DNA from: Octopus vulgaris
Lineage: Eukaryota
Reading direction: 5' to 3'
NCBI GenBank assembly: GCA_951406725.2
Contig: OX597824.1
Coordinates: 33,108,001 to 33,172,000 of the forward strand
DNA length: 64,000 bases
The position numbers and the translations under genes were made by a program. Under the pieces are notes generated by a model. That model was given only the letters and a program-made list of their open reading frames with translations. It was not told the origin of the DNA and made no database searches. Shown one piece after another: positions 7,856 to 53,000 of this stretch. How positions within the stretch are numbered: position 1 is the first letter of the stretch; the number at the start of each line of letters is the position of its first letter.

Positions 7856-8053
7856 ATATATATTTATATATACATATGAAAAAATACCGTTAAAAATGAA
7901 GGGAAATTACTCTGTTATAACTCTGCTTTGCCTGCGTACTTATACATCGCTCGCATTTTTCGTCATAAAAATTATATAAAAATACATAAAAAATATATAA
8001 AAATATATAAAAATATATAAAATCTTCTTGGGACATAACACAGAAAGCATGTT

Positions 8054-9698
8054 CTATCCGTTTTCTTTAGGGGACCAAAAACGTAACAGAAATTTAGTCA
8101 CATGTGGGCATGATCCGAAAAGTTCTGTCCTTGTATTTAGACATGTGGTAGGGTCTAAGCTGCTTTTCCAGATAAGCCATCTCTCCATGTCGCATAAACC
8201 GCACCTTCCGCTGCCGTTAGTATAGGGCTTACATCTGGCCAAAATCTTCCATTGTATGTTATAATCGACACCTTTATCTCTTAAAGACCAAATATGATTG
8301 GATAATTGTGTCGCTTTTCTTTTGTTCCAGTGCCTAAAGCTCAAAGTGTGGTTATTGAACCTGGCCTTGAAATTACCCTCTGTCAGGCCCACGTATTTCT
8401 TCGTCAAAACGGTGTCTTTAGTGGTTATAGAGTTTACGGTAGCCTCATATATGATGGTCTTGGACATGCAAGCTCCATTTAGCGGGCACAATTCTTTATT
8501 CCTGCATGAACAGCTGTTTTCTTCTTGTGTTTTTTGTATGTTATGATTGATTATGTTTTTAAAATTGGTAGTTGAACTAAAACTAATTTTTAAATTGTGT
8601 CTATTGAAGAGTTTCCTATAAGCATGGTTAACTGGAAAATGTCTATCTATCAGTGCTAGGAAATATTTACCTATATTGAAGGCCACCTCGGGTGAGTAAG
8701 GGGGCGTAAACCAGATGACCTTCCTATTTCTATTATTCCTTTTCTTTATTGTTGGGCTGGTGATAGGTGTATATTTTATTTTTTCGCTAAAACCACTATC
8801 TTTTAAAGCTTTATTATAAACTGGGGCAACGCTATTGAAGATGTCCTCATTAGATGAGAGGCTAGAAATCCTCTTACTAATATTTTTAACTAAATTTTTG
8901 AATACTATAGGGGGATGGCATGAACCTACATTAATATAACTTAGTCTATCATTGGGCTTCCTATAAGGCTTATAAATATTATTATTAAGATCTAAGGAAA
9001 CGTCTAAGAAATTGACAACCGTCAGGTTAGTGTCTATAGTTATACTAAGTCCGAAGTGTTTCATTAACTGGATAATATCCTTCCTAAAACGATCTTGTGC
9101 TGGTCCATTTGTATTAGCTGTTAAGGCGAGGGCATCATCTTTGTAGATGGCGAAATGTACGTTAGGGAATGTCTTACTGAAGGTATCTAGGAGAAAGAGT
9201 CCAATTAGATCACAGATGCCTGCCCCATCATATGAACCCATGCTCACATCGAAAGCGCCCTCCGTGTCGGTGTTTTTTACCCACTTTGCATTCTCACTGA
9301 AAAGTAATGTCTTTCTAGCATGGAAGATTATATCCTTATCATTGGTACTAATTTCTATGAAGTCACTAGCGAAGATTAGGGCTTTATCTAGCAGTTCTTT
9401 AGAGATAGAGGCATAAAAATCAACAATATCGAATTGTGTAAACCTCGCTTTTTTCTTATTCTTAATAGCTTTAAACCAGTCTACGACTTCTATACTATTG
9501 GACCATTGCACTAGCCTAGTATCGGTCTTAATTTTCGTATTTATTTTATCTAAAATTTCTTTGCTAATAATCCCTAGTTCTGACTTGGCTGGGTTGATAA
9601 GCCTACATTTAGGATTGGAAAGGAAGTTTTCTTTGTGGTCTTTAATAGTAATAAAGGCCTCTTTTTGGGGGAGGGTTTCTATTTTTTTATCTAATTTT
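8054..9698 (-). CDS. PLE polyprotein, 5'-truncated but in frame: RT (FDIVDFY, SMGSYDGA, YKDD, VNFLDV) plus C-terminal GIY-YIG endonuclease (IIYEA...KYVGLT...FKARFNNH)
   Basis: 556-aa ORF in the track, of which the first ~9 residues come from the junction fragment. Cys motifs CSCRNKELCPLNGAC, CGLC and CPH surround the endonuclease, which I recall as typical of the Hydra group of C-terminal-EN PLEs. Confidence 0.9.
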
Positions 9699-9757
9699 AT
9701 CTTGACTACCGAGTAATGTAACATATTGTATAGATAAATTTCCTCTATTTACATAAT

Positions 9758-11365
9758 AGAGGCCTTTATTACTATTAAAGACCACAAAGAAAACTTCCTT
9801 TCCAATCCTAAATGTAGGCTTATCAACCCAGCCAAGTCAGAACTAGGGATTATTAGCAAAGAAATTTTAGATAAAATAAATACGAAAATTAAGACCGATA
9901 CTAGGCTAGTGCAATGGTCCAATAGTATAGAAGTCGTAGACTGGTTTAAAGCTATTAAGAATAAGAAAAAGCGAGGTTTACACAATTCGATATTGTTGAT
10001 TTTTATGCCTCTATCTCTAAAGAACTGCTAGATAAAGCCCTAATCTTCGCTAGTGACTTCATAGAAATTAGTACCAATGATAAGGATATAATCTTCCATG
10101 CTAGAAAGACATTACTTTTCAGTGAGAATGCAAAGTGGGTAAAAAACACCGACACGGAGGGCGCTTTCGATGTGAGCATGGGTTCATATGATGGGGCAGG
10201 CATCTGTGATCTAATTGGACTCTTTCTCCTAGATACCTTCAGTAAGACATTCCCTAACGTACATTTCGCCATCTACAAAGATGATGCCCTCGCCTTAACA
10301 GCTAATACAAATGGACCAGCACAAGATCGTTTTAGGAAGGATATTATCCAGTTAATGAAACACTTCGGACTTAGTATAACTATAGACACTAACCTGACGG
10401 TTGTCAATTTCTTAGACGTTTCCTTAGATCTTAATAATAATATTTATAAGCCTTATAGGAAGCCCAATGATAGACTAAGTTATATTAATGTAGGTTCATG
10501 CCATCCCCCTATAGTATTCAAAAATTTAGTTAAAAATATTAGTAAGAGGATTTCTAGCCTCTCATCTAATGAGGACATCTTCAATAGCGTTGCCCCAGTT
10601 TATAATAAAGCTTTAAAAGATAGTGGTTTTAGCGAAAAAATAAAATATACACCTATCACCAGCCCAACAATAAAGAAAAGGAATAATAGAAATAGGAAGG
10701 TCATCTGGTTTACGCCCCCTTACTCACCCGAGGTGGCCTTCAATATAGGTAAATATTTCCTAGCACTGATAGATAGACATTTTCCAGTTAACCATGCTTA
10801 TAGGAAACTCTTCAATAGACACAATTTAAAAATTAGTTTTAGTTCAACTACCAATTTTAAAAACATAATCAATCATAACATACAAAAAACACAAGAAGAA
10901 AACAGCTGTTCATGCAGGAATAAAGAATTGTGCCCGCTAAATGGAGCTTGCATGTCCAAGACCATCATATATGAGGCTACCGTAAACTCTATAACCACTA
11001 AAGACACCGTTTTGACGAAGAAATACGTGGGCCTGACAGAGGGTAATTTCAAGGCCAGGTTCAATAACCACACTTTGAGCTTTAGGCACTGGAACAAAAG
11101 AAAAGCGACACAATTATCCAATCATATTTGGTCTTTAAGAGATAAAGGTGTCGATTATAACATACAATGGAAGATTTTGGCCAGATGTAAGCCCTATACT
11201 AACGGCAGCGGAAGGTGCGGTTTATGCGACATGGAGAGATGGCTTATCTGGAAAAGCAGCTTAGACCCTACCACATGTCTAAATACAAGGACAGAACTTT
11301 TCGGATCATGCCCACATGTGACTAAATTTCTGTTACGTTTTTGGTCCCCTAAAGAAAACGGATAG
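9758..11365 (+). pseudogene. Second PLE RT/GIY-YIG copy, frameshifted near its 5' end
   Basis: Same sequence as the left arm except A5 instead of A6 at ~9966-9970. The downstream 397-aa ORF 10172-11365 matches the left protein. Confidence 0.88.
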
Positions 11366-11560
11366 AACATGCTTTCTGTGTTATGTCCCAAGAAGATTTT
11401 ATATATTTTTATATATTTTTATATATTTTTTATGTATTTTTATATAATTTTTATGACGAAAAATGCGAGCGATGTATAAGTACGCAGGCAAAGCAGAGTT
11501 ATAACAGAGTAATTTCCCTTCATTTTTAACGGTATTTTTTCATAACGTTTTCAAATAGCC

Positions 11561-11623
11561 AGATAACCGAAGAGATGGTGTTGTGGATTTCCACTTCGGC
11601 ATCTGAAACTCAGAGTTTTATCT
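11561..11623 (+). ncRNA. Type I hammerhead ribozyme in the PLE pseudo-LTR (variant core)
   Basis: Helix I AGAUAA/UUAUCU, core CCGAAGA, helix II GAUG/CAUC with inner GUGGA/UCCAC, extra U, GAA, helix III ACUC-A-GAGU. Predicted cleavage after GUU at 11617. Confidence 0.75.
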
Positions 11624-11871
11624 TGACTACCGAGTAATGTAACATATTGTATAGATAAATTTCCTCTATTTACATAATATTGAGGTCTCTTTCTTTCTTT
11701 TGTTATCTTACCGTTTTATCAATATATATACATATATATGTATATATATACATACATACAAACATACATACATGCATACATACATACATACATACATACA
11801 TACATACATACATACATACATACATACACATATGTATATACACATACATATATATATATATGTGCATATAT

Positions 11872-27227: not shown

Positions 27228-28928
27228 TGTGTCTTTGTATCTGTGTTTGTCTCCCCATCACCACTTGACAGCCAGTGTTGGTGTGCTTACATCTCTGTAA
27301 CTTAGCAGTTCATCAAAAATAACCAATAGAACAAATACTAAGCTTAATAAAAAAGACCGGGGATAGATTTGTATTTATGTATGATGGGCTTCTTTCAGTT
27401 TCCATCTACCAACTCAAAAAGGCTTTCGTCAGTCCGAGGCTATAGTAGATGACACTTGTCAAAGGTGCCACACTGTGAAACTGAACCCAGAACCATGTGG
27501 TTAGGAAGCAAGATTCTTACAATACTGCCACTCCTGTGCCTATGTATGTATGTATATATATCCATGAGCTGGCAGAAACATTAGCATGCCAGGCGAAATG
27601 CTTTGCGGTATTTCGTCCGCCGCTGCGTTCTGAGTTCATATTCCGCTGAGGTCAACTTTGCCTTTCATCCTTTCGGGGTCGATAAATTAAGTACCAGTTA
27701 CGCACTGGGGTTGATGTAATCGACTTAATCCCTTGGTCTGTCCTTGTTTGTCTCCTCTGTGTTTAGCCCCTTGTGGGTAGTAAAGAAATATATATATAAA
27801 GATAAGTCCTAGGGTTGATTTGTTCAACTTAAAAACCTTTCAAAGTGGTGCTCCAGCATGGCTACAGTCAAATGACTGAAACAAGTAAATATATATATAT
27901 ATATTCTAGCAAAAACTGTCTGACGAACGGGAACGTGAAACTCAGAGTAACAGGTTTTGTTGAATTTTCTGCTGCTTTAAATAAAGTATACATATATATA
28001 TATATATATATGGAAAAAAAAGTCAAGATAGAAAATGCTAAAATAATTTTATAAAAAACATTTCAGTATCGGTTTCAGTCATTGAGACTTTTTCAACTGT
28101 AACAATTAAACAATTAAATTTAGAAAACTTAAAAGTAAAGTTTTTTTAAAAGAATATTTGTATAGTGTTCAAATACAAGTGGCCTTTTCCTTGTTTCTGC
28201 CTGTCTCTGTCTCTCTTGTTTAATCTTGTGGGTTCCAGGTCAGGTCATTGTGAATTCTTGGTAGGGAAGAGGAAGAAAAAGAAGAAGGAGGAGGAGGAGA
28301 AGGAGAAGAAGAAAAATGTGGGAGTGCCATGACAGTAGTATTTTGGCACTCCCACATTCTTCTTCTCCTTCTCCTCCTCCTTCTTTTTCTTCTTCATCTT
28401 CTTCCCTACCAAGAATTCACAATGACCTGGAACCCGCAAGAGTAAACAAGAGAGACAGAGACAGGCAGAAACAAGGAAATTGCCACTTGTATTTGAACAC
28501 TATACAAATATTCTTTTAAAAAAAACTTTTCTTTTAATTTTTCTAAATTTAATTGTTTAATTATTACAGTTGAAAAAGTCTCAATGACTGAAACCGGTAC
28601 TGAAATGTTTTTTTATAAAATTATTTTAGCATTTTCTATCTTGACTTTTCTTCCATATATATCCGGCGAGCTGGCAGAACTGTTAGCACGCCGGGCGAAA
28701 TGCGTAGCAGTATTTTGTCTGTCGTTATGTTCTGAGTTCAAATTCTGCCGAGGTTGACTTTGCCTTTCATCCTTTCGGGGTCGATAAATTAAGTACCAGT
28801 TATGCAGTGGGGTCGATATAATCGACTTAATCCCTTTGTCTGTCCTTGTTTGTCCCCTCTATGTTTAGCCCCTTGTGGGTAATAAAGAAACATATATCAA
28901 CTCATGTGTTCCTTTTCATCCTTCTACA

Positions 28929-28967
<39 letters not shown>

Positions 28968-31484
28968 GCACACAAACACACACGCACACACACATATATA
29001 TATAATTGACTTTATTCTCACCATCCCTCCAAGAGTGTGGCTTGGTTCTTGGGCTATAAGCATTTAATCTTTTACTATTTCATACAGGATGTTCCATATA
29101 TTGAAGAAATTCCTGACTGGATTAAGAATGGAACTATAACTTTACAAGGTCAAGCTGAAACAGGACAGAATGGGTAAGTAAATGAGATGATGCACCATTT
29201 ATTTCAGTTTTAAAGACTTTAAAGATTTCTCTTTCTCACAGGCGCAGGAGTGGCTGTGTGGTAAGTAGCTTGCTAACCAACCACAAGGTTCCGGGTTCAG
29301 TCCCACTGCGTGGCACCTTGGGCAAGTGTCTTCTGCTATAGCCCCGGGCCGACCAATGCCTTGTGAGTAGATTTGGTAGACGGAAACTGAAAGAAGCCTG
29401 TCGTATATATGTATATATATATAAGTGTGTGTGTATATGTTTGTGTGTCTGTGTTTGTCCCCCAAGCATTGCTTGACAACCGATGCTGGTGTGTTTACGT
29501 CCCCGTCACTTAGCGGTTCGGCAAAAGACCCGATAGAATAAGTACTGGGCTTACAAAGAATAAGCCCCGGGGTCGATTTGCTCGACTAAAGGCGGTGCTC
29601 CAGCATGGCCGCAGTCAAATTACTGAAACAAGTAAAAGAGTAAAAGAGTATGTCAATTCAAGCTGACTCGTACAATTTCCAGTCTAAATTTACTGCCTTG
29701 TATTTAACTGATATTAAATTTAAATTAGCTTTGCTTGAAACAGAAATAAAGTAATATATAATATTTTTTAAACTCCATAAAAGCTTTCTAAGGTTGAAAC
29801 AATGCAAAATGAAATACAAAAGTGAAGGGGGCACAGGAGTGGCTGTGTGGTAAGTAGCTTGTTTACAAACCACATGGTTCCAGGTTCACTCCCACTGTGT
29901 GGCACCTTGGGCAAGTGTCTTCTACTATAGCCTCGGGCCGACCAAAGCCTTGTGAATGGATTTGGTAGACGGAAACTGAAAGAAGCCCGTTGTATATATA
30001 TATATATATATATATATATGCGTGTGTGTGTTTGTGTGTCTGTGTTTGTCCCCCTAGCATTGCTTGACAACCGATGCTGCTGTGTTTATGTCCCCGTTAC
30101 TTAGCGGTTCGGCAAAAGGGACCGATAGAATAAGTACTGGGCTTCCAAAGTATAAGTCCCGGGGTCGAGTTGCTCGATTAAAGGTGGTGCTCCAGCATGG
30201 CCGCAGTCAAATGACTGAAACAAGTAAAAGAGTAAAAGAGAGAGAGAGAGTAAAGGGAACAGCAGCTGAAGCCTTTTCTTGTATTTCTTTGATATTTTTG
30301 GATTATATATATAATAAACTTATTGTATACAGTGCTCAGGTGCACTACAACTCATCAGATAAGGTAGTCAAAAATGCTTATATAGTACATAGAATAACTC
30401 ACAGAAAGTGAACAGTAAATGAATTGTTTAAAAAACGAAGGTGGAAGGTATCAGGTGTACTTTTGGCAAATTGCAGGAAGCACGGAAGTTTTGAAGGATG
30501 TAGCGTCCTGACATAACAACTGGTAGCAATTCTGGGCACGAAAGAATGTTTCCAAAAGTCACGGGTTCTGTGTTGTTTTTTTCAATTTTGTAAGCATCTC
30601 CATGAGTGTTAGACAAATGGAATTCAAAAAGGTACTGAAGATTGTTGTTGGAAAGCTGGAGGATAATTTTATGGGTGTCTGCCATGTCAGTTGCCAGAGG
30701 AAGGCGGTGAGCTGGCAGAATCGTTAGCACACTGGATGGGATGCTTAGCAGTATTTCGTCTACCATTACGTTCTGAGTTCAAATTCCGCCGAGGTCGACT
30801 TTGCCTATCATCCTTTCGGAGGTCGATAAATTAAGTACCAGTTACGCACTGGGATCGATGTAATTGACTTAATGTCCTTGTTTCTCCTCTCTATGTTTAG
30901 CTCCTTGTGGGCAATAAAGAAATAAAATGTTGGAGCTTTAATGTGTCCATGCCCAGGGAAGCAAGTGTTCATAGGGACCCGTTCATTAGGACACATGAAG
31001 AAATAAGAGACGGTCAAACCTTTTTTTTTTATTGCTACTATTGCCATTTCTCCATGGAAGAAACAACTTCAGTTGATACTAATATTCTAAATCAATTTTC
31101 AGTATCCTCGCTTGGCAATATTTCACCTTAATGTCCTCTTATTTATTTTTTTGTCTTTTAAGGTTTTCTATAAACTTATCAACCGAACCTTGTTTTGAGC
31201 CACTACCAGACACAGCCCTTCATATCAATGTACGATCACAAAACAAAATTATTGTGTTTAACTATTACAAGAGTGGAAAATGGGGCATGGAAGAAAGAGT
31301 CCATGACAAATTTCTCTTGCGGCAAGATTTCTCCTTTGAACTTACGATAATGATAGCTAAATCTGAATTTATGGTTAGTAAACTTTTTCAAAATTTGTTA
31401 TCTTTATTTGTGCAAATGTTTATCTAGGTTGTGAGAATAGTAGAATACAGAGGTGTAAATAACCTGAGAATGTGTGTGTGTGTA

Positions 31485-33690: not shown

Positions 33691-34355
33691 CATACATACA
33701 TTAAACGATGATGATGATGATATACATACATACGTTAAACGATGATATATATATATACATACATATATATATAGAGGTTAGAATAACCTCATTAAGGGAT
33801 AGAAAATATCCACCGAATTACTGGTTTGTTACCTATTATTTTGTTGTGAATAGCAATATTCCTAAAATAATAAGTTCAATTATAAATCTTGGTTTATAAA
33901 TATTAAAATTAAAATCCAGAAAATGGAGAAGTAGCATTACTATAATTTATTAACTCCAAAAATTCAGCATGTTCTTTTACAGTTGTTTTGGTTTTGCCCA
34001 AAAGAATTAAATTCTAGTTGATTAAAACATTCTATTGGGCAAACTCTCATCAGAGGAATAAATAAGAAATATCGTAAGGTTATTACATGTTATTATTCCA
34101 AAACATCTCAACAGATTGGAATGTTCCTTATACTTAACATCTAACAACATAATGGTGTATCTTTTTTCTGCCTCTGATGAAATTCTGCTTTAGAAAATGA
34201 TTTAATTATCACAATTACAATTTCTAAGGTATGAATCGAAACAGCTGTAAGAAATTATGTTTGTTTTGCAGTTAATAAATATTCTTCTTCTTCTTCTTCT
34301 TCTTCCCTACCAATAATTCACAACGACCTCAAACCCACACGAGTAAACAAACATA

Positions 34356-34550: not shown

Positions 34551-35538
34551 ATATATGTGAGCTGCAGTGGCGACCCGTGTGGGCATTTGTGTAGTACTTG
34601 ATGCCAAAGTTTGGTACCAGTCCTGCCAGTATTTTCTATATGTAAATTATTACATATCTCTCCTGCCTGCACTCCAGGGAGTAGAGACTTAGTGCCTTCA
34701 TCTGCTGGACTCTGGTGATCTTTTTGTATAGTGACGCTGAATTGCCCCGAGTTCTGCTGGTGACCACAACTGAGAGCAATAGTCTAGGTGGCTCAGAACA
34801 AATGTCTTCCATAGAGTCAACATGACTTTTTGATCCCTCGTTCTGAATGTCCTCAGTATCCACCTTGCCAGTTGTTTGCACTTTGCTGTCAACTTGACAA
34901 TGTGCATATGAAATGATGCATCACTACACATGCTGACTGTTTGTGGTTCTGGGATTGCAGTACCTCCAGGTCCTGTGTATGCCAGTTGGGAGGCACTTGT
35001 GTCCTTGTAGCGCAGTACTTGAAATTTTTTAGCATTGAACCGCGTGTTATTTTGCTCTGCCCACTTGTATATAGCATTTAGGTCATTCTGCAGGCTTATG
35101 ACATCATCAGGATTCTTTATTGCCTGAGATAGTTTTTTGTCTTCAGCGTAGCTAGTGACAATGGCTGTCCCAGTGACCGTGGGCATGTCCAGAATGGCTA
35201 CTATGAACAATTGTGGCCCCAGGACAGTTCCTTGTGGAACACTGCTAAATAGTTGCATTTCCCTAGTGACATCTAAATGCATCCTGGTGTCATGCAAATG
35301 GCACCTGTGCCAGTGGCATGTAAAAACACCCAGTACACTCTTGGAGGGGTCGGCATTAGGAAGGGCATCCAGCCATAGAGAACCAGGCCAAATCAGACTG
35401 GAGCCTGGTGTTAGCCCAGTCAAACTGTCCAATCCATGCCAGCACGGACAACAGACGTTAAATGTTGATGATGATGATATTATACACACACACACGTATA
35501 AATATATTACATATAATATAATTATATATATGTGTGTG

Positions 35539-35596
<58 letters not shown>

Positions 35597-38586
35597 ATAT
35601 TACATGTAAATATATTGTGTGTGTGTGTTTATATATATATGTATATGTATGTATGTATATATATATATGTTATACATATAACATATTATATATTATATAC
35701 AGGGTGTGTAAGGTATTTGAGGACATACCTTTTTTGGGTCATTGCTGCAGTTTTTGCTAACTCTGTATAATCTTTGTTTCTGAAAATAATAATGGCAGAC
35801 CCTCGGCTTACTCAAGAAATGAAGAGGCATACTGCTATTGTGGCTATAAAGGCTGAGCATTGTGATTTAGAAATATCTCGATTTTTAAAAATGTCCTCTT
35901 CTTTCATCTACAAAGTTTGTAAGGAGCTAGAGACTGAAGATGGAAATGTATCACCAATATCAAAACATAAAAAGCATTCTAAACACTCTGAAATCATCAG
36001 AACGCCTGAATTAATCCAGCAAGTTCAACAAACTATTGATTACAATCCCAGAAAGATTTCCATGTGTCAGAAGGAACAGTCGGAAATGTTGTCCACGAAG
36101 ATATCAGATATAAGTCTTATATGACGAGGAAAGGTTAATTTGTCAGAAAATGCAAAAGAAAACCACTATATCAGATCTAAAAGGTTCTTAAACAAACTGA
36201 AAAATCCAGCAGAAGAAGATTTAATTTGGTGTTTCTCAAACAAGAAAAACTTCGACCAAGATCAAAAAGTTAAAAGAAATGACAGATGGTTATGTGCAGA
36301 CCCTTCTGAAGTTCCAAGTGTTAAGTATACAAAATTTCCTGCAACTGTCATAATTTTAGGGGTTGTCAGCTATGAAGGACATGTAATGCCTCCTTACTTC
36401 TTTCCACAAGGCCTTAGAGTTAACTCTGTCATATACATTGAGGTCCTGGAAATAACTGTTAATCTCTGGATAGACAGTGTATGCAATGGAAGGCCATATG
36501 TGTTTCAGTAAGACTCCACACTATCATATATGTCTCTAGTAAGACAGGAATGGATGGCTGAAAATTTTCATGATCATATAACCCCTAACATTTGGCCTCC
36601 TAATTCCCCTGATCTCAATCCATTGGACTATTACATGTAGTACATTGTTGAGAGAGAGGTCAATGAACATGCCCGTAACACCAAAGATTCTTTGAAAGCT
36701 GCTATAGTCAGAGTAATGTCCAAAATGAACCAAGACCACCTGATTTGAGCATGTAGATGATTTAGATCTTGTATAGAAGCAGTTGTTGAAGCTGAAGGTG
36801 GCTTTATTGAATAACATTATAGAAAAGGTTTATTTTTATCCTCATAGCATTTTTTGATAAAGTTTTTATCTGTTATTATGTATGTTTTTTTTTATAAACA
36901 TAAATCTGTCCTCAAATATCTTACACACCCTGTATATATTACATATAAATATATCGTATGTGTGTACAAATACACACACAGCTATTTTTATATACTGTTT
37001 CCAGCTACCAAATTCTACTCAATGACAATGGGCAATCTGAGGTTACAGTGTAACCTTTTGCTAAAAGGGTCATGTCATTGCAAAGTGACCATGTCATTGC
37101 AAAATTACCCTCTTAATTACACAGATATGCTTCCACCTATATATAGCAATTTTCAAAAATGTAATTAAATTGGCATCTTCTGTCATTTTTTCTGCCATTA
37201 TTTCAAAATACTTAGTGGCATTTTGTCTGTCTTTATATTCCAATTTCAAATTCTACCAAGGTGGACTTTACCTGTCATCCTTTTGGGGGGGTCAATGAAA
37301 TAAGTATCTGTTGTGCACTAGGGTCGATGTAAACAACTAGCCCCTTCAAGGGATATCTTTTGACATAGTAGGTTGTCGTAAAAGATAAGAACGATCAATG
37401 ATGTTTTCACTGTTAAATTTATATTATTAAAAGACACAGGTATGGCTTTGTGGGTTGTCCAAAGCCTTGTGAATAGATTTGGTAGACGGAAACTGAAAAG
37501 AAGCCCATTGTGTGTGTGTGTATGTGTGTGTATGTGTGCATGTGTGTTCTTTGTGTCTCTGTTCAGTTGTCCTCCACCACAACTAGACAACTGGTACTGG
37601 TGTGTTTACATCTCTGTAACTTATCGGTTCTGCAAAAGAAACTGACAGAAAAAGCACCAGGCTTTAAAAAACAAGTACTACGGTCAATACATACAACTAG
37701 AAATTCGCCTTCAAGGCAGTGCCCCAGCATGGCCATAGTCCAATGACTGAAACAAGTAAAAGATAAAAATACAAGATAGAAGATAAATGAATTAATAGTT
37801 TCTTTTTTTTCTTCTCTTTCAGATTTTCTTCCATAACGTCTATCATTTAAGTTTGCCTCACAGAATGGATTATAATAGTGCAAAGTTTCTTGTCATTAGA
37901 GGTTCTGTTCAAATGCAACAAGTTCGAATTGATGGTTCTGTAAGTACTGATGAAGCTCTCATTATTACAATAGTTTTATATCTACTTCATGAAGTGCATG
38001 GCTTAGTGTTTACGGTATTCAGCTCATGATCGTAAGGTGGTGAGTTCAATTTCTGGCAACACGCTGTGTCCTCAAGCAAGACACTTTATTTCACACTGTT
38101 CCAGTCCTCTCACCTAACAAAAATAAATTGTACCTGTATTTCCGAAGAACCAGCCTTGTCACACTCTATGTCATACTGAATCCCTCTGAGAACTATGTCG
38201 AGAGTACACATGTCTGTGGAGTTCTCAGCCACATGCATGTTAATTTTGTGAGCAGGCTGTTCCATTGATCAGATCAACTGGGGCCCTCATTATCATAACC
38301 AGTATATCTACTACAGAAGCTGGGGATCTCTTTTAGATGTGAAAATCATTTAAAGCTGATTGTTGATATTTTGTCCCTTACTTTGTGATTCATCAGTAGT
38401 GCTTCGATGGAACAGCTAGATCCCCTTTGTTAGTATATATAAGTGTACTTTTCATGCTGCTTTAAGGGTTTTCACTCTTATTTCTTGCAATATAGGTGCT
38501 CCCAGCATCCTCAGTTACAATTAGCGATGATTGTCGTATATATATATATATATATATATACGACAATCATCGCTAATTGTAACTGA

Positions 38587-46195: not shown

Positions 46196-47814
46196 TATGT
46201 GTGTGTGTGTATATTCGTGTTTGTGTCTGTGTTTGTCCCTCCCATCATTGCTTGACAACCTATGTCAGTGTGTTTACATCCCTGTGACCTAGTGGTTTGG
46301 CAAATGATACTGATAAAATAAGTACTAGGCTTACAAAGAATAAGTCCTGAGGTCGATTTGTTCAACTAAAGGCGGTGCTCCAGCATGGCGGCAGTCAAAT
46401 GACTGAAGTAAGTAAAAGAATAAAAGAATATCCCTTGGACACAAAGACCTGTTGAGGCAAGCGAAGTCGATATAGAACCTCATCCGACGACAGGCACCCA
46501 TGCCAACCCCCTTTGCTTGTGAAGACATGTTGGGGCAAGCGAAATCGAAATCGAATTGAACCAGCCAGGATCCCTGGTCTGGTGGTACGTAAAAAGCACT
46601 ATCCGACTCGTGGCCGATGCCAGCACCGCCTCGACTGGCTTCCGTGCAGGTGGCACATAAAACACACCAATCCGACCGTGGCCGTTGCCAGCCTCGCCTG
46701 GCACCTGTGCAGGTGGCACGTAAAAAGCACCCACTACACTCACGGAGTGGTTGGCGTTAGGAAGGGCATCCAGCTGTAGAAACATTGCCAGATAAGACTG
46801 GAGCCTGGTGCAGCCTTCTGGCTTCCCAGATCCCTGGTCGAACCGTCCAACCCATGCTAGCATGGAGAACAGACGTTAAACGATGATGATGATGATGATG
46901 ATATATATATATAGAAAAGAAAGTTATTTTATTCCTCCTAGGTAGAAGTATAGGAAAAATAGAAGTTGAAAATGCTCTGAGTACTAGACAGATTCCACTG
47001 AGTGGACACATAGATATATGTGCAAAAAATAAGTCCACCAAATTGCAGGTCTTCCCACTCTACCTATGTTTTAAACAAAGAAAATGCATTCAAACAAAAG
47101 TTCAAACCAAGACTTTACAAACTTCAACAGAGTACATACACAAATAACTATTCACACATAAAATTCATCCTGCCATTTATCATGAGGAAGCTACACTGCT
47201 AACAACCTAAATATTAGCCACTGGGCTACATACAAATGACTTCAGTCCATTCTCCCAACAGATAGAATAAATTTGGAACGCCTTGATTATAGCTAAACAT
47301 GTTCACTCAACCGTGCTGGCCTTCTTTTTAGGCGTAAAATATACTGTCATTTGACACTAATGCATGAACGTAGCGGGAAATGTAAAAAAAGGTTATAAAC
47401 TTGATAATAATAATACTTAATACTATGTTCATTTTCTACAAACACTTGAGAGAAAACATACAGAGCATTGATTGTTGGGACACGGTCAACCAACTGTGTC
47501 AGCTTTAAATTACAACACTAAACATTGTCACTTGATACTAACACGCAAACATAGCAGGGAACCTATAAAAATTTCTAAGACCAATTATGTAACTATCCAC
47601 TATCAATCAAATCTTATTCAAAGCATATACTAATTTGAGCCATGAACTCCCACACGGAAGTCAGAAATAAGACAGCTGCAAATAAGCTATGTCTTTCTGT
47701 TTAAACTTTTTGAAAATCAGTGTAAACTGTGAAACTAGTTAAAGCTTTAAATATATCAATAAAAAATATTTTAACTATTTTCAGTGCATTTCAACTTCTA
47801 TTTTTCATATATAT

Positions 47815-50091: not shown

Positions 50092-53000
50092 GCAAGGATT
50101 TAGCATAACAAACAGAAAAAGTTAACATAAACATAACAAACGGAAAATTTGACAAAAAACATAACAAATGGAAAATTTGACAAAACCATACCAAACACAA
50201 AATTTGTAGCGAATTCCTCATCAGTCAATGTCCGAGAGAACATAATGATTTCATGCCATTATCAATGATATTGTTCACTCTAGTGGTGCCGGTTGCAAAA
50301 GCCACTGGGAATACCTAACAAATGTACAGGATAGTGGCAAAAACAAACAAGACAAATTAAAATAATTATACTAATTATACATATTGGCACAGGAATGGCT
50401 ATAGGTGCAGGAGTGGCTTTATAGGCACGGAGTGGCTTTATAGGCACGGAGTGGCTGTGTGGTAAGTAGCTTGCTTACCAACCACATGGTGCCTTGGGCA
50501 AGTGTCTTCTACTATAGCCTTGGGCCAACCAAAGTCTTGTGAGTGGATTTGATAGGTGGAAACTGAAAGAAGCCCATCATATATATATTATATATATATG
50601 TATATGTTTGTGTGTCTGTGTTTGCTCCCTCACCATCGCTTGACAACTGATGTTGGTGTGATTACGTCCTGTAACCTAGCAGTTTGGTGAAAGAGACTGA
50701 TAGAATATGTACTAGGCTTATAAACAATTTGTTCGACTAATGGTGGTACTCCAGCATGGCTGCAGTCAAATGATTGAAATAAACAAAAAGAATAAAGAAA
50801 AAGGATATACAAAAAAAAAATGCTGTGCAGCTACCAGGCAGATGAGTATAGGTAATGCAAATGAAAATGAAGATGACCTATACGACAAGAGACAGAATGG
50901 GAGATAGAAAGTCAGAATGAAAGAAGAAGTAAACAAACTGTGTAGGAAAAAGGCGAGCTGGCAGAAACGTTAGCATGCCAGGTGAAATGCTTAGTGGTAT
51001 TTCGTCTGCTGTTACGTTCTGAGTTCAAATTCCGCCAAGGTCAACTTTGCCTTTCATCCTTTCGGGGTCGATAAATTAAGTACCAGTTATGCACTGGGGT
51101 CGATATAATCGACTTAATCCATTTGTCTGTCCTTGTTTGTCCTCTCTGTGTTTAGCCCCTTTTGGGTAGTAAAGAAATAGGTATTTCATCTGCCGTTACA
51201 TTCTGAGTTCAAATTCTGCTGAGGTTGACTTTGCCTTTCATCCTTTCGGTGTCGATAAATTAAGTACCAGTTATGCACTGGGGTCGATATAATCGACTTA
51301 ATCCATTTGTCTGTCCTTGTTTGTCCTCTCTGTGTTTAGCTCCTTTTGGGTAGTAAAGAAATAGGTATTTCATCTGCGGTTACATTCTGAGTTCAAATTC
51401 TGCTGAGGTTGACTTTGCCTTTCATCCTTTCGGTGTCGATAAATTAAGTACCAGTTATGCACTGGGGTCGATATAATCGACTTAATCCATTTGTCTGTCC
51501 TTGTTTGTCCTCTCTGTGTTTAGCTCCTTTTGGGTAGTAAAGAAATAGGTATTTCATCTGCGGTTACATTCTGAGTTCAAATTCCGCTGAGGTTGACTTT
51601 GCCTTTCATCCTTTCGGGGTCGATAAATTAAGTACAAGTCTGTCCTTGTTTGTCCACTCTATGTTTAGCCCCTTGCGGGCAATAAAAAAAAATAAGGTGA
51701 AGGAACACAAAGAAGCATGACTGACTTGATTAACAGCAAAGCGATAAAGGATAAGAGAGGCTTTGATGGTCACAGGTCACAAGGTAGTGGGAGGATAGAG
51801 AAAGAGTTGTGGAAGGCAGAGGGACAGAAGCAATGGACAAGAGTATTGGGAGGGAAAGAAAGAGAAAGTCAGAGAGAGAGGGGGAGGTAAAAGAGAGGCA
51901 AAAGAAAGAGACAGAGTTAGACATTGCACAAAAAATATTCCAAGAATATTTTATAAATGGGTAAAAAAATATAAGGAGTGCGTTGCATGACATAAATAAT
52001 ATTTCAAGGATTTAACATGGCAAATGGAAAAATTTGACAAAAATTTAAACAAGTGGAAAATTTGACAAAAACATAACAAACAGAAAATTGAGTGAGAGTG
52101 TGTATAAATGAGTGTGTGTATATGTGTTTCCTTGTTTTTAACGCTCATTAGTTGTAAATGAGTGTAACCGTTGTATAAGCAGTGTTATACATTTCCAATA
52201 TTCTGTAAAAACATATTTGGCATTGAGTAAATATTTCCTTTTTGGGAACAAGTGTTTGCAATAGGAAGGGTTTCTGGTCATAGAACCTGCCTCGAAAACT
52301 CTATGTGACCCTTGCAAGCTTGGGGAAATGACAATGACAGTGGTCGTGGAAACGGCGATAATGATGACAACAGACATAATCAAAGCTTTAATAAATATAA
52401 TCAAGCTATGTTTTTTTTCTCTAATGAATTAATTTAATGATGAATTTAGCGGTAAATTTAATTTAATGATGAATTAATTCTCTTATGAATTTAATGGTTA
52501 CATCTATTCAACAAACTAATTTTTCATGTCTTTCTAAATATCAAATAAAATATTTCTTCATTTGCTCTCTTTTTCTCCATTTTCCACTAGGTTTACTGTG
52601 AATTTCAACACTGACAGAGATATTGCTTTCCATTTTGATGTTCGCCTTAGTCCTGACTATAATGTTATTCGTAATTCTTACATAAAAAAATGCTGGGGAG
52701 AAGAAGAAACTTATAAACCTTCTTTTCCTTTTCGACCGGGTATTGGATTTGATTTGATGTTCACCATTGAACGTTACTGTTACAGAGTAAGTATATCAGT
52801 TCTGAGAAATCTCTTGTTTATCTTTTATCATTTCTTTGTTTCCGTCATTAGAATGCAGCCATGCTGGGGCACCAGCTTAAAGAATTTTTAATCGAATGAA
52901 TCGACCCTCAATTACTTATTTATTCTTTTTAAGCCTGGTACTTGTTCTAGCACTCTCTTTTGCTGAAGTGGTAAGTTACAGAGACATAAACAAACCAACA

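Follow-up and report, generated by a model that had tools for sequence, protein, structure and literature searches.

The window, the whole 64,000-nucleotide stretch of Octopus vulgaris DNA that was analysed, is AT-rich animal DNA rich in SINE-like repeats. Two galectin exons recognized by Pfam and a shorter probable one (Table 1) point to a probable galectin gene with several domains that extends across this part of the window; the short exon at 29088 gave no Pfam match by itself. Because the splice sites and the phase of this short exon fit the exon at 31163, a palindromic insertion lying ahead of it, at 28004-28662, is probably intronic in this plus-strand gene. Part of a reverse transcriptase from a non-LTR retrotransposon was observed on the minus strand at 34701-35669 (Pfam RVT_1, E 2e-5, below the cut-off).

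The arms of the insertion are 92% identical (303 matches, 14 mismatches and 11 gap columns) and are separated by a spacer of 14 nt (28330-28343). Two copies of a hammerhead motif lie near the outer ends of this 660-bp inverted pair, which is set in (TA)n, and each arm stops approximately 55 nt past the cleavage site, within (TA)n. No convincing ORF was found in either arm, and no ORF of a Penelope-like element (PLE) is attached to the stub. The insertion combines an inverted, 5'-truncated copy adjoining at the 5' end with a (TA)n target; inverted 5'-truncated copies and (TA)n targeting have both been described for PLEs (PMC8557442). The head-to-tail tandem monomers typical of non-LTR retrozymes, which are repeats that form circRNA, are absent: within the window the motif is present in two copies only, and these are inverted. 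The tail (34282-34350) of another stub, the old inverted pair at ~33945-34350, is 88% identical to the inner part of the arms (28381-28449), and the arms may therefore combine sequences of two families.

Table 1. Position, strand and basis of the features annotated in the window.
Feature	Position	Strand	Basis
5'-truncated Penelope-like element, RT and GIY-YIG features, inverted pair in (TA)n	7875-11720		motifs, self-comparison
Canonical C3-G8 motif: CUGACGA, A10.1-U11.1, helix III ACUCAGAGU, GUA; stub ends in (TA)n	27916-27953	+	descriptors
Left arm of palindromic insertion, outward end in (TA)n	28004-28329	-	self-comparison
Inverted hammerhead copy, UUGAAAA core, helix III palindrome broken (ACCGAU)	28064-28099	-	pattern match, duplex energy
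Right arm of palindromic insertion; high-copy repeat family corresponds to ~28475-28655	28344-28662	+	self-comparison, contig/read matches
Type I minimal hammerhead motif, U3-A8 core, A10.1-U11.1 helix II, palindromic ACCGGU	28567-28602	+	descriptor, shuffles, co-fold
Probable galectin exon, 28 aa, AG/GT ends, phase fits 31163 exon	29088-29173	+	splice sites, phase
Galectin exon, Gal-bind_lectin E 9.5e-16	31163-31372	+	Pfam
Old decayed C3-G8 inverted pair, 68% identical, CUGAUGA core, long helix II region, ACAGCUGU palindrome	~33945-34350		
Second U3-A8 motif: CUUU/AAAG, UUGAAAA, CAGU/ACUG, ACUAGU palindrome, U17	47706-47744	+	descriptors
Galectin exon	~52589-52800	+	Pfam

The right-arm motif reads, on the plus strand, CAG-UUGAAAA-AGUC(UCAAU)GACU-GAAA-CCGG-UA-CUG. 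Helix I is formed by CAG/CUG, and positions 3-9 of the core are UUGAAAA, with U3 at 28570 and A8 at 28575. Helix II consists of four base pairs (AGUC/GACU) with a UCAAU loop and an A10.1-U11.1 closing pair, and is followed by GAAA; helix III is the palindrome ACCGGU, and the cut is predicted after the triplet GUA, between A17 (28599) and 28600. The type I hammerhead features are present at positions 4-6 and 9, in GAAA, A15.1-U16.1 and H17, and in the three helices. A Watson-Crick pair is possible between positions 3 and 8 (U3/A8), and the strict C3/G8 consensus is not matched. The G10.1-C11.1 pair and the extra base between positions 9 and 10.1, which belong to the >80%, non-universal, consensus of minimal hammerheads (min-HHRs), are absent. 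A first-pass annotation had placed the UUGAAAA core in both arms and found helices I, II and III and the GUA site intact in the right arm, and our reading of the sequence confirms this. The left arm (28096-28067, minus strand) fits a 30-nt pattern of the right arm with a single mismatch, which turns helix III into ACCGAU; the calculated self-duplex energy is -8.3 kcal/mol for the ACCGGU of the right arm and -1.3 kcal/mol for the left-arm sequence.

A U-rich tract followed by CAG precedes the core (28555-28569, plus strand) and resembles a 3' splice site; the motif at 47706 is without this AG. In Drosophila Penelope the end of an intron coincides with helix I (PMC4209133).

In none of 150 dinucleotide-shuffled versions of the window did the descriptor written for the U3-A8 form find a match. 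A less strict descriptor that leaves positions 3 and 8 unconstrained had three matches in the window, all with a Watson-Crick combination at 3-8 (CG, UA and UA), and in 200 local shuffles it yielded a mean of 0.055 matches and a maximum of 1. The stability of the 51-nt monomer fold of the motif was not unusual (z = -0.81). Another candidate, at ~63113 with a UUGAUGA core, failed the stricter descriptors.

Rfam gave no match in the whole window at the gathering score. For the segment 27800-28800, 67 matches with E <= 10 were obtained, mostly to miRNA-type models over the central hairpin, and no hammerhead was among them. The miss is not specific to U3-A8, because the canonical C3-G8 motif at 27916-27953 was missed as well; the Rfam models do not cover such minimal forms. 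A pattern with positions 3, 7 and 8 free had no match in viral contigs or in GTDB genomes, and its two matches in metagenome contigs were discarded as chance, since both fall in bacterial coding DNA rich in GC and lack helix I and context.

The sequence at 28567-28602 is confirmed as a true minimal hammerhead motif of the PLE type, with a core variant that has been published before. Apart from the non-universal G10.1-C11.1 pair and bulge, it agrees with the min-HHR class in the features examined. PLE hammerheads with U3-A8, the UUGAAAA core, opposite-strand pairs and a U3-A8 descriptor have been known since 2014, and natural U3-A8 hammerheads since 2011. Cervera and De la Pena (2014, PMC4209133) described U3-A8 min-HHRs in the Cercyon PLEs of Schistosoma mansoni and obtained about 1,300 matches in Schistosoma PLEs with a U3-A8 search descriptor. 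In the same work, hammerheads on opposite strands occur as pairs separated by 100-700 bp, and min-HHR dimers showed low activity in vitro; the Fig. S3 alignment of that paper contains an example with the UUGAAAA core (S. mansoni 4). The first-pass annotation had called U3-A8 a rare substitute and had stated that searches based on CUGANGA would miss this family; both statements were too strong, given the number of Schistosoma matches, the published descriptor and the failure of Rfam to recover the canonical motif at 27916-27953.

The Cercyon min-HHRs resemble the octopus motif in being of type I with U3-A8 (in one case with an identical UUGAAAA core), in their short helix I and in a palindromic helix III that requires a dimer; they also occur mostly as dispersed stubs and as opposite-strand pairs, the present pair being ~500 bp apart (PMC4209133). 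They differ in helix II, where the octopus motif has 4 bp, A10.1-U11.1 and no extra base after A9, whereas Cercyon has G10.1-C11.1 and a bulge. Helix III of the octopus motif has a 4-nt insert, unlike that of the Cercyon min-HHRs, and position 17 is A, in contrast to U and G in the two listed Cercyon U3-A8 examples; a machine-read consensus figure in that paper suggests a purine at N17 in one small family. The hammerhead of a Marsupenaeus japonicus PLE (PMC4209133, Fig. S3) shares with the octopus motif a 7-nt bulge-free core, a 4-bp helix II, A10.1-U11.1, a 6-nt palindrome and A17, but its core is of the canonical C3-G8 form and its helix I has 5 bp. The 40-species list of the same paper is without a cephalopod, whereas the present host is an octopus.

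The natural U3-A8 variants of Perreault et al. (2011, PMC3088659) show the same covariation at positions 3 and 8 and were active in vitro, which supports the initial description of a 3-8 core pair with U3-A8 as a functional form. That study is a broad survey of all domains and, in the part covered here, makes no link to PLEs or to a dimer-only architecture. The PAc hammerhead (Poseidon of Anolis carolinensis; Frangieh et al., 2024, PMC11167929) is likewise a minimal PLE hammerhead; its dependence on the 3-8 pair was established by mutant rescue, and no RNA-seq ends were found at its cleavage site. Unlike the octopus motif, it has a C3-G8 core; it overlaps an ORF start and was shown to need the PLE protein. 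Penelope-like families are listed for Octopus vulgaris in a source whose accessible text is without the word 'hammerhead' (PMC13282606), and octopus goes unmentioned in the accessible part of bioRxiv 10.64898/2026.07.22.740005. Literature searches for cephalopod hammerheads or for U3-A8 wording returned no report of an octopus hammerhead, a result that does not establish absence from print. Studies by Lunse et al. on dimeric PLE hammerheads and by Przybilski and Hammann in 2007 may already cover U3-A8 with A17. The present data extend U3-A8 PLE hammerheads to a probable octopus genome in which the family is abundant, a result of modest importance, and the family helps to assign short repeats anchored in (TA)n to the Penelope-like stubs.

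Sequences from 4 of 24 sequencing runs (X2, X4 and X7 among them) were compared with 28404-28655 at 80% likeness, with 28404-28473 skipped. The repeat family was matched by 4067, 3564 and 1393 contigs in DNA runs with the organism labels A, B and D, respectively, and by 86 reads from RNA of organism E. Summed depth does not measure copy number, and the rough estimate of 3,000-23,000 copies was therefore not relied on. Judged from the loose ends of the matches, the copies share a constant 3' end at (TA)n and differ in sequence upstream of ~28499; such a dispersed high-copy family, with the motif near the 3' end of short copies, is a feature of min-HHRs.

Among the best 40 of 68 variant rows, none falls at positions 3-9, 12-15.1 or 17, which include 28570, 28575 and 28599. 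Positions 28504 and 28563 fully account for the two A>G changes tallied in X4 and for the two tallied in X7, and therefore G8 is below 4% in these two runs. Beyond the best 40 rows, the unplaced positions comprise T>C changes (one in X2, one in X4 and two in X7) and one A>G change in X2, and the only limit on C3 is that those 40 rows do not contain it. Short contigs with both C3 and G8 may clip at double mismatches, and the depth of X2 dips near the core. From the best 40 of 68 rows, U3-A8-A17 appears to be the state of the family and not a local decay; a family in which most copies carry C3/G8 or unpaired combinations, the case that the first-pass annotation had set against its own reading, was not seen in these rows.

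The second U3-A8 motif of the window is unrelated to the one in the palindrome: all three helices differ, and no blastn match to the arm was obtained. It carries a U10.1-U11.1 mismatch, which is a tolerated variant (PMC3088659), and TTTTTCATA(TA)n lies ~65 nt downstream (span to 47810). The canonical motif at 27916-27953 sits 650 bp upstream of the right-arm motif, has its helix III in common with the PLE motif at 11561-11623, and has a decayed relative at 26744-26680 (minus strand, 75% identical) that likewise ends in (TA)n. The C3-G8 motif of the old inverted pair is located at 34171.

PLEs with the inverted (TA)n insertion style occur in this genome. The element at 7875-11720 has an open frame of 564 aa with YDG, KDDAL, a CxC..CP..C linker, YVGLT and CGLC; this ORF had no Pfam match at E 0.01, GIY-YIG being found only at E 0.016, below the Pfam cut-off, and no match in a PDB sequence search. 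A total of 1432 relatives were found. Its inverted copies look young, the 3' 144 bp and a 64-bp tail being 100% identical, and the tail is repeated at 9695-9758 and 11616-11679. At 11561-11623 it contains a degenerate hammerhead-like motif with a CCGAAGA core. No autonomous partner of the U3-A8 family was identified within the window, and this PLE has a different motif. A link between the family and this PLE through a shared 10-mer, TATCTTGACT, was rejected (9 matches at <=1 mismatch vs 7.2 expected).

Most probably, the motif is a pseudo-LTR minimal hammerhead of an abundant PLE family, the founder of which already carried U3-A8, and the copy in this window is dead. In an active element, two RNA copies would pair through the ACCGGU palindrome to give a double hammerhead. 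Extrapolating from published PLE hammerheads, U3-A8 would stand in for C3-G8, with cleavage after GUA that would probably be slow and may be assisted by the element's protein. Two right-arm copies co-fold in the calculation with intermolecular helices III and I and with helix II intact (-21.1 kcal/mol, homodimer MFE), the probability of intermolecular helix III being 0.91; the short, palindromic, dimer-competent helix III is present in the right arm and broken in the left. Dimer cleavage of hammerheads has been reviewed (PMC6765202).

The insertion at 28004-28662 is probably a dead, head-to-head pair of 5'-truncated 3' ends, which would have been written in this orientation into a (TA)n tract to give the typical inverted structure of PLEs. 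Folded as a whole, the palindrome RNA has a predicted energy of -480 kcal/mol, with 94% of its positions and the entire motif paired. A transcript across the insertion most likely folds as one long hairpin, of ~320 bp, that buries the motif and leaves this copy inert. From either strand the antisense arm would come first; because the hairpin buries the motif and the complementary arm is transcribed first on either strand, the copy at this locus is probably inert, whatever the founder did.

The ability of the founder to cut is the sole point on which this explanation differs from one in which the motif is a hitch-hiking dead relic: the founder would have fixed U3-A8 and A17 by chance, with the cleavage site locked, and would have been amplified since PLE transposition needs no cleavage. 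Such a relic is possible, though we consider it unlikely. For the monomer, U3 is predicted to pair with A17 at P = 0.81, and for the dimer the value is 1.48 of 2; in the C3-G8-A17, U17 or C17 variants, the predicted value for 3-17 pairing is 0. This pairing would be expected to lower activity, mirroring the inhibitory C3-G17 trap, a pair that strongly impairs minimal hammerheads (PMC3884650), but a lone A-U pair is presumably weaker than the C-G trap. Mutants of the PAc hammerhead still insert in vitro, as found for the one PLE assayed (PMC11167929). No pile-up of RNA ends was detected at the cleavage site or elsewhere in the 86 reads, a weak test with ~35-40 reads across the site. The reads run in both orientations, and 79% of them continue into unrelated sequence, like passengers in other transcripts. 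Variable positions numbered 0/13 in the core and 16/139 in the flanks (p = 0.36), as counted from 24 of the best 40 of 68 variant rows, the other 16 being <4% in all three DNA runs. The core is not significantly more conserved than the flanks, and selection for catalysis, which the first-pass annotation had read into the double change, is not demonstrated, also in view of the predicted U3-A17 pair and the insertion of the PAc mutants. Two facts speak against the relic: two changes restoring a pair are needed to reach U3-A8, and the unrelated 47706 motif in the same window is also U3-A8, with U17 and no trap. The A17 family and this U17 motif form a natural pair for asking whether U3-A17 throttles cleavage, which bears on whether PLE hammerheads serve the element or merely ride along. 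It is quite doubtful that the U3-A17 pair was kept as a built-in latch, one that would keep the ribozyme inactive until U3 is moved onto A8 by the dimer partner or by the protein of the element. If it were, the family would be a natural self-locking hammerhead at high copy number in probably cephalopod genomes, where U3-A8 would have been put to use by two or more unrelated families, the A17 family with a latch and the U17 family without.

Two further explanations carry far less weight. Under local decay, the inverted duplication would have been preceded by two changes, C3U and G8A, in a C3-G8 hammerhead of this locus. Both changes are transitions, the arms stem from one event and hence are not independent, and canonical C3-G8 stubs lie nearby (27916 and 34171); these stubs, however, belong to other families with different helices, and thousands of contigs under the labels A, B and D agree with U3 and A8, G8 being <4% in two runs, which makes this origin barely credible. 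Slightly less remote, and still very improbable, is that the 660-bp palindrome is a MITE or a foldback DNA transposon carrying the motif in its arms by chance or as a passenger. The long inverted repeat, the 14-nt spacer and the lack of an ORF would suit such an element, but chance does not account for the descriptor matches, the family pieces vary upstream of ~28499 and end at a fixed 3' end in (TA)n, as 5'-truncated retroelements do, and the RT-bearing PLE of the window shares the inverted layout and ends in a similar TTTTTTCATA.

Some variation was observed among family members around the motif. RNA reads of organism E showed that some copies deviate at conserved positions, with T>C at U16.1 (9/35 reads), and had an extra A in the A run (7/39 reads). 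In X2, the last base of helix I (28602) was changed from G to A in 19% of the depth, and loose ends at 28568 end in CTCTA; these unphased observations hint that one subfamily has helix I in the compensated form UAG/CUA.
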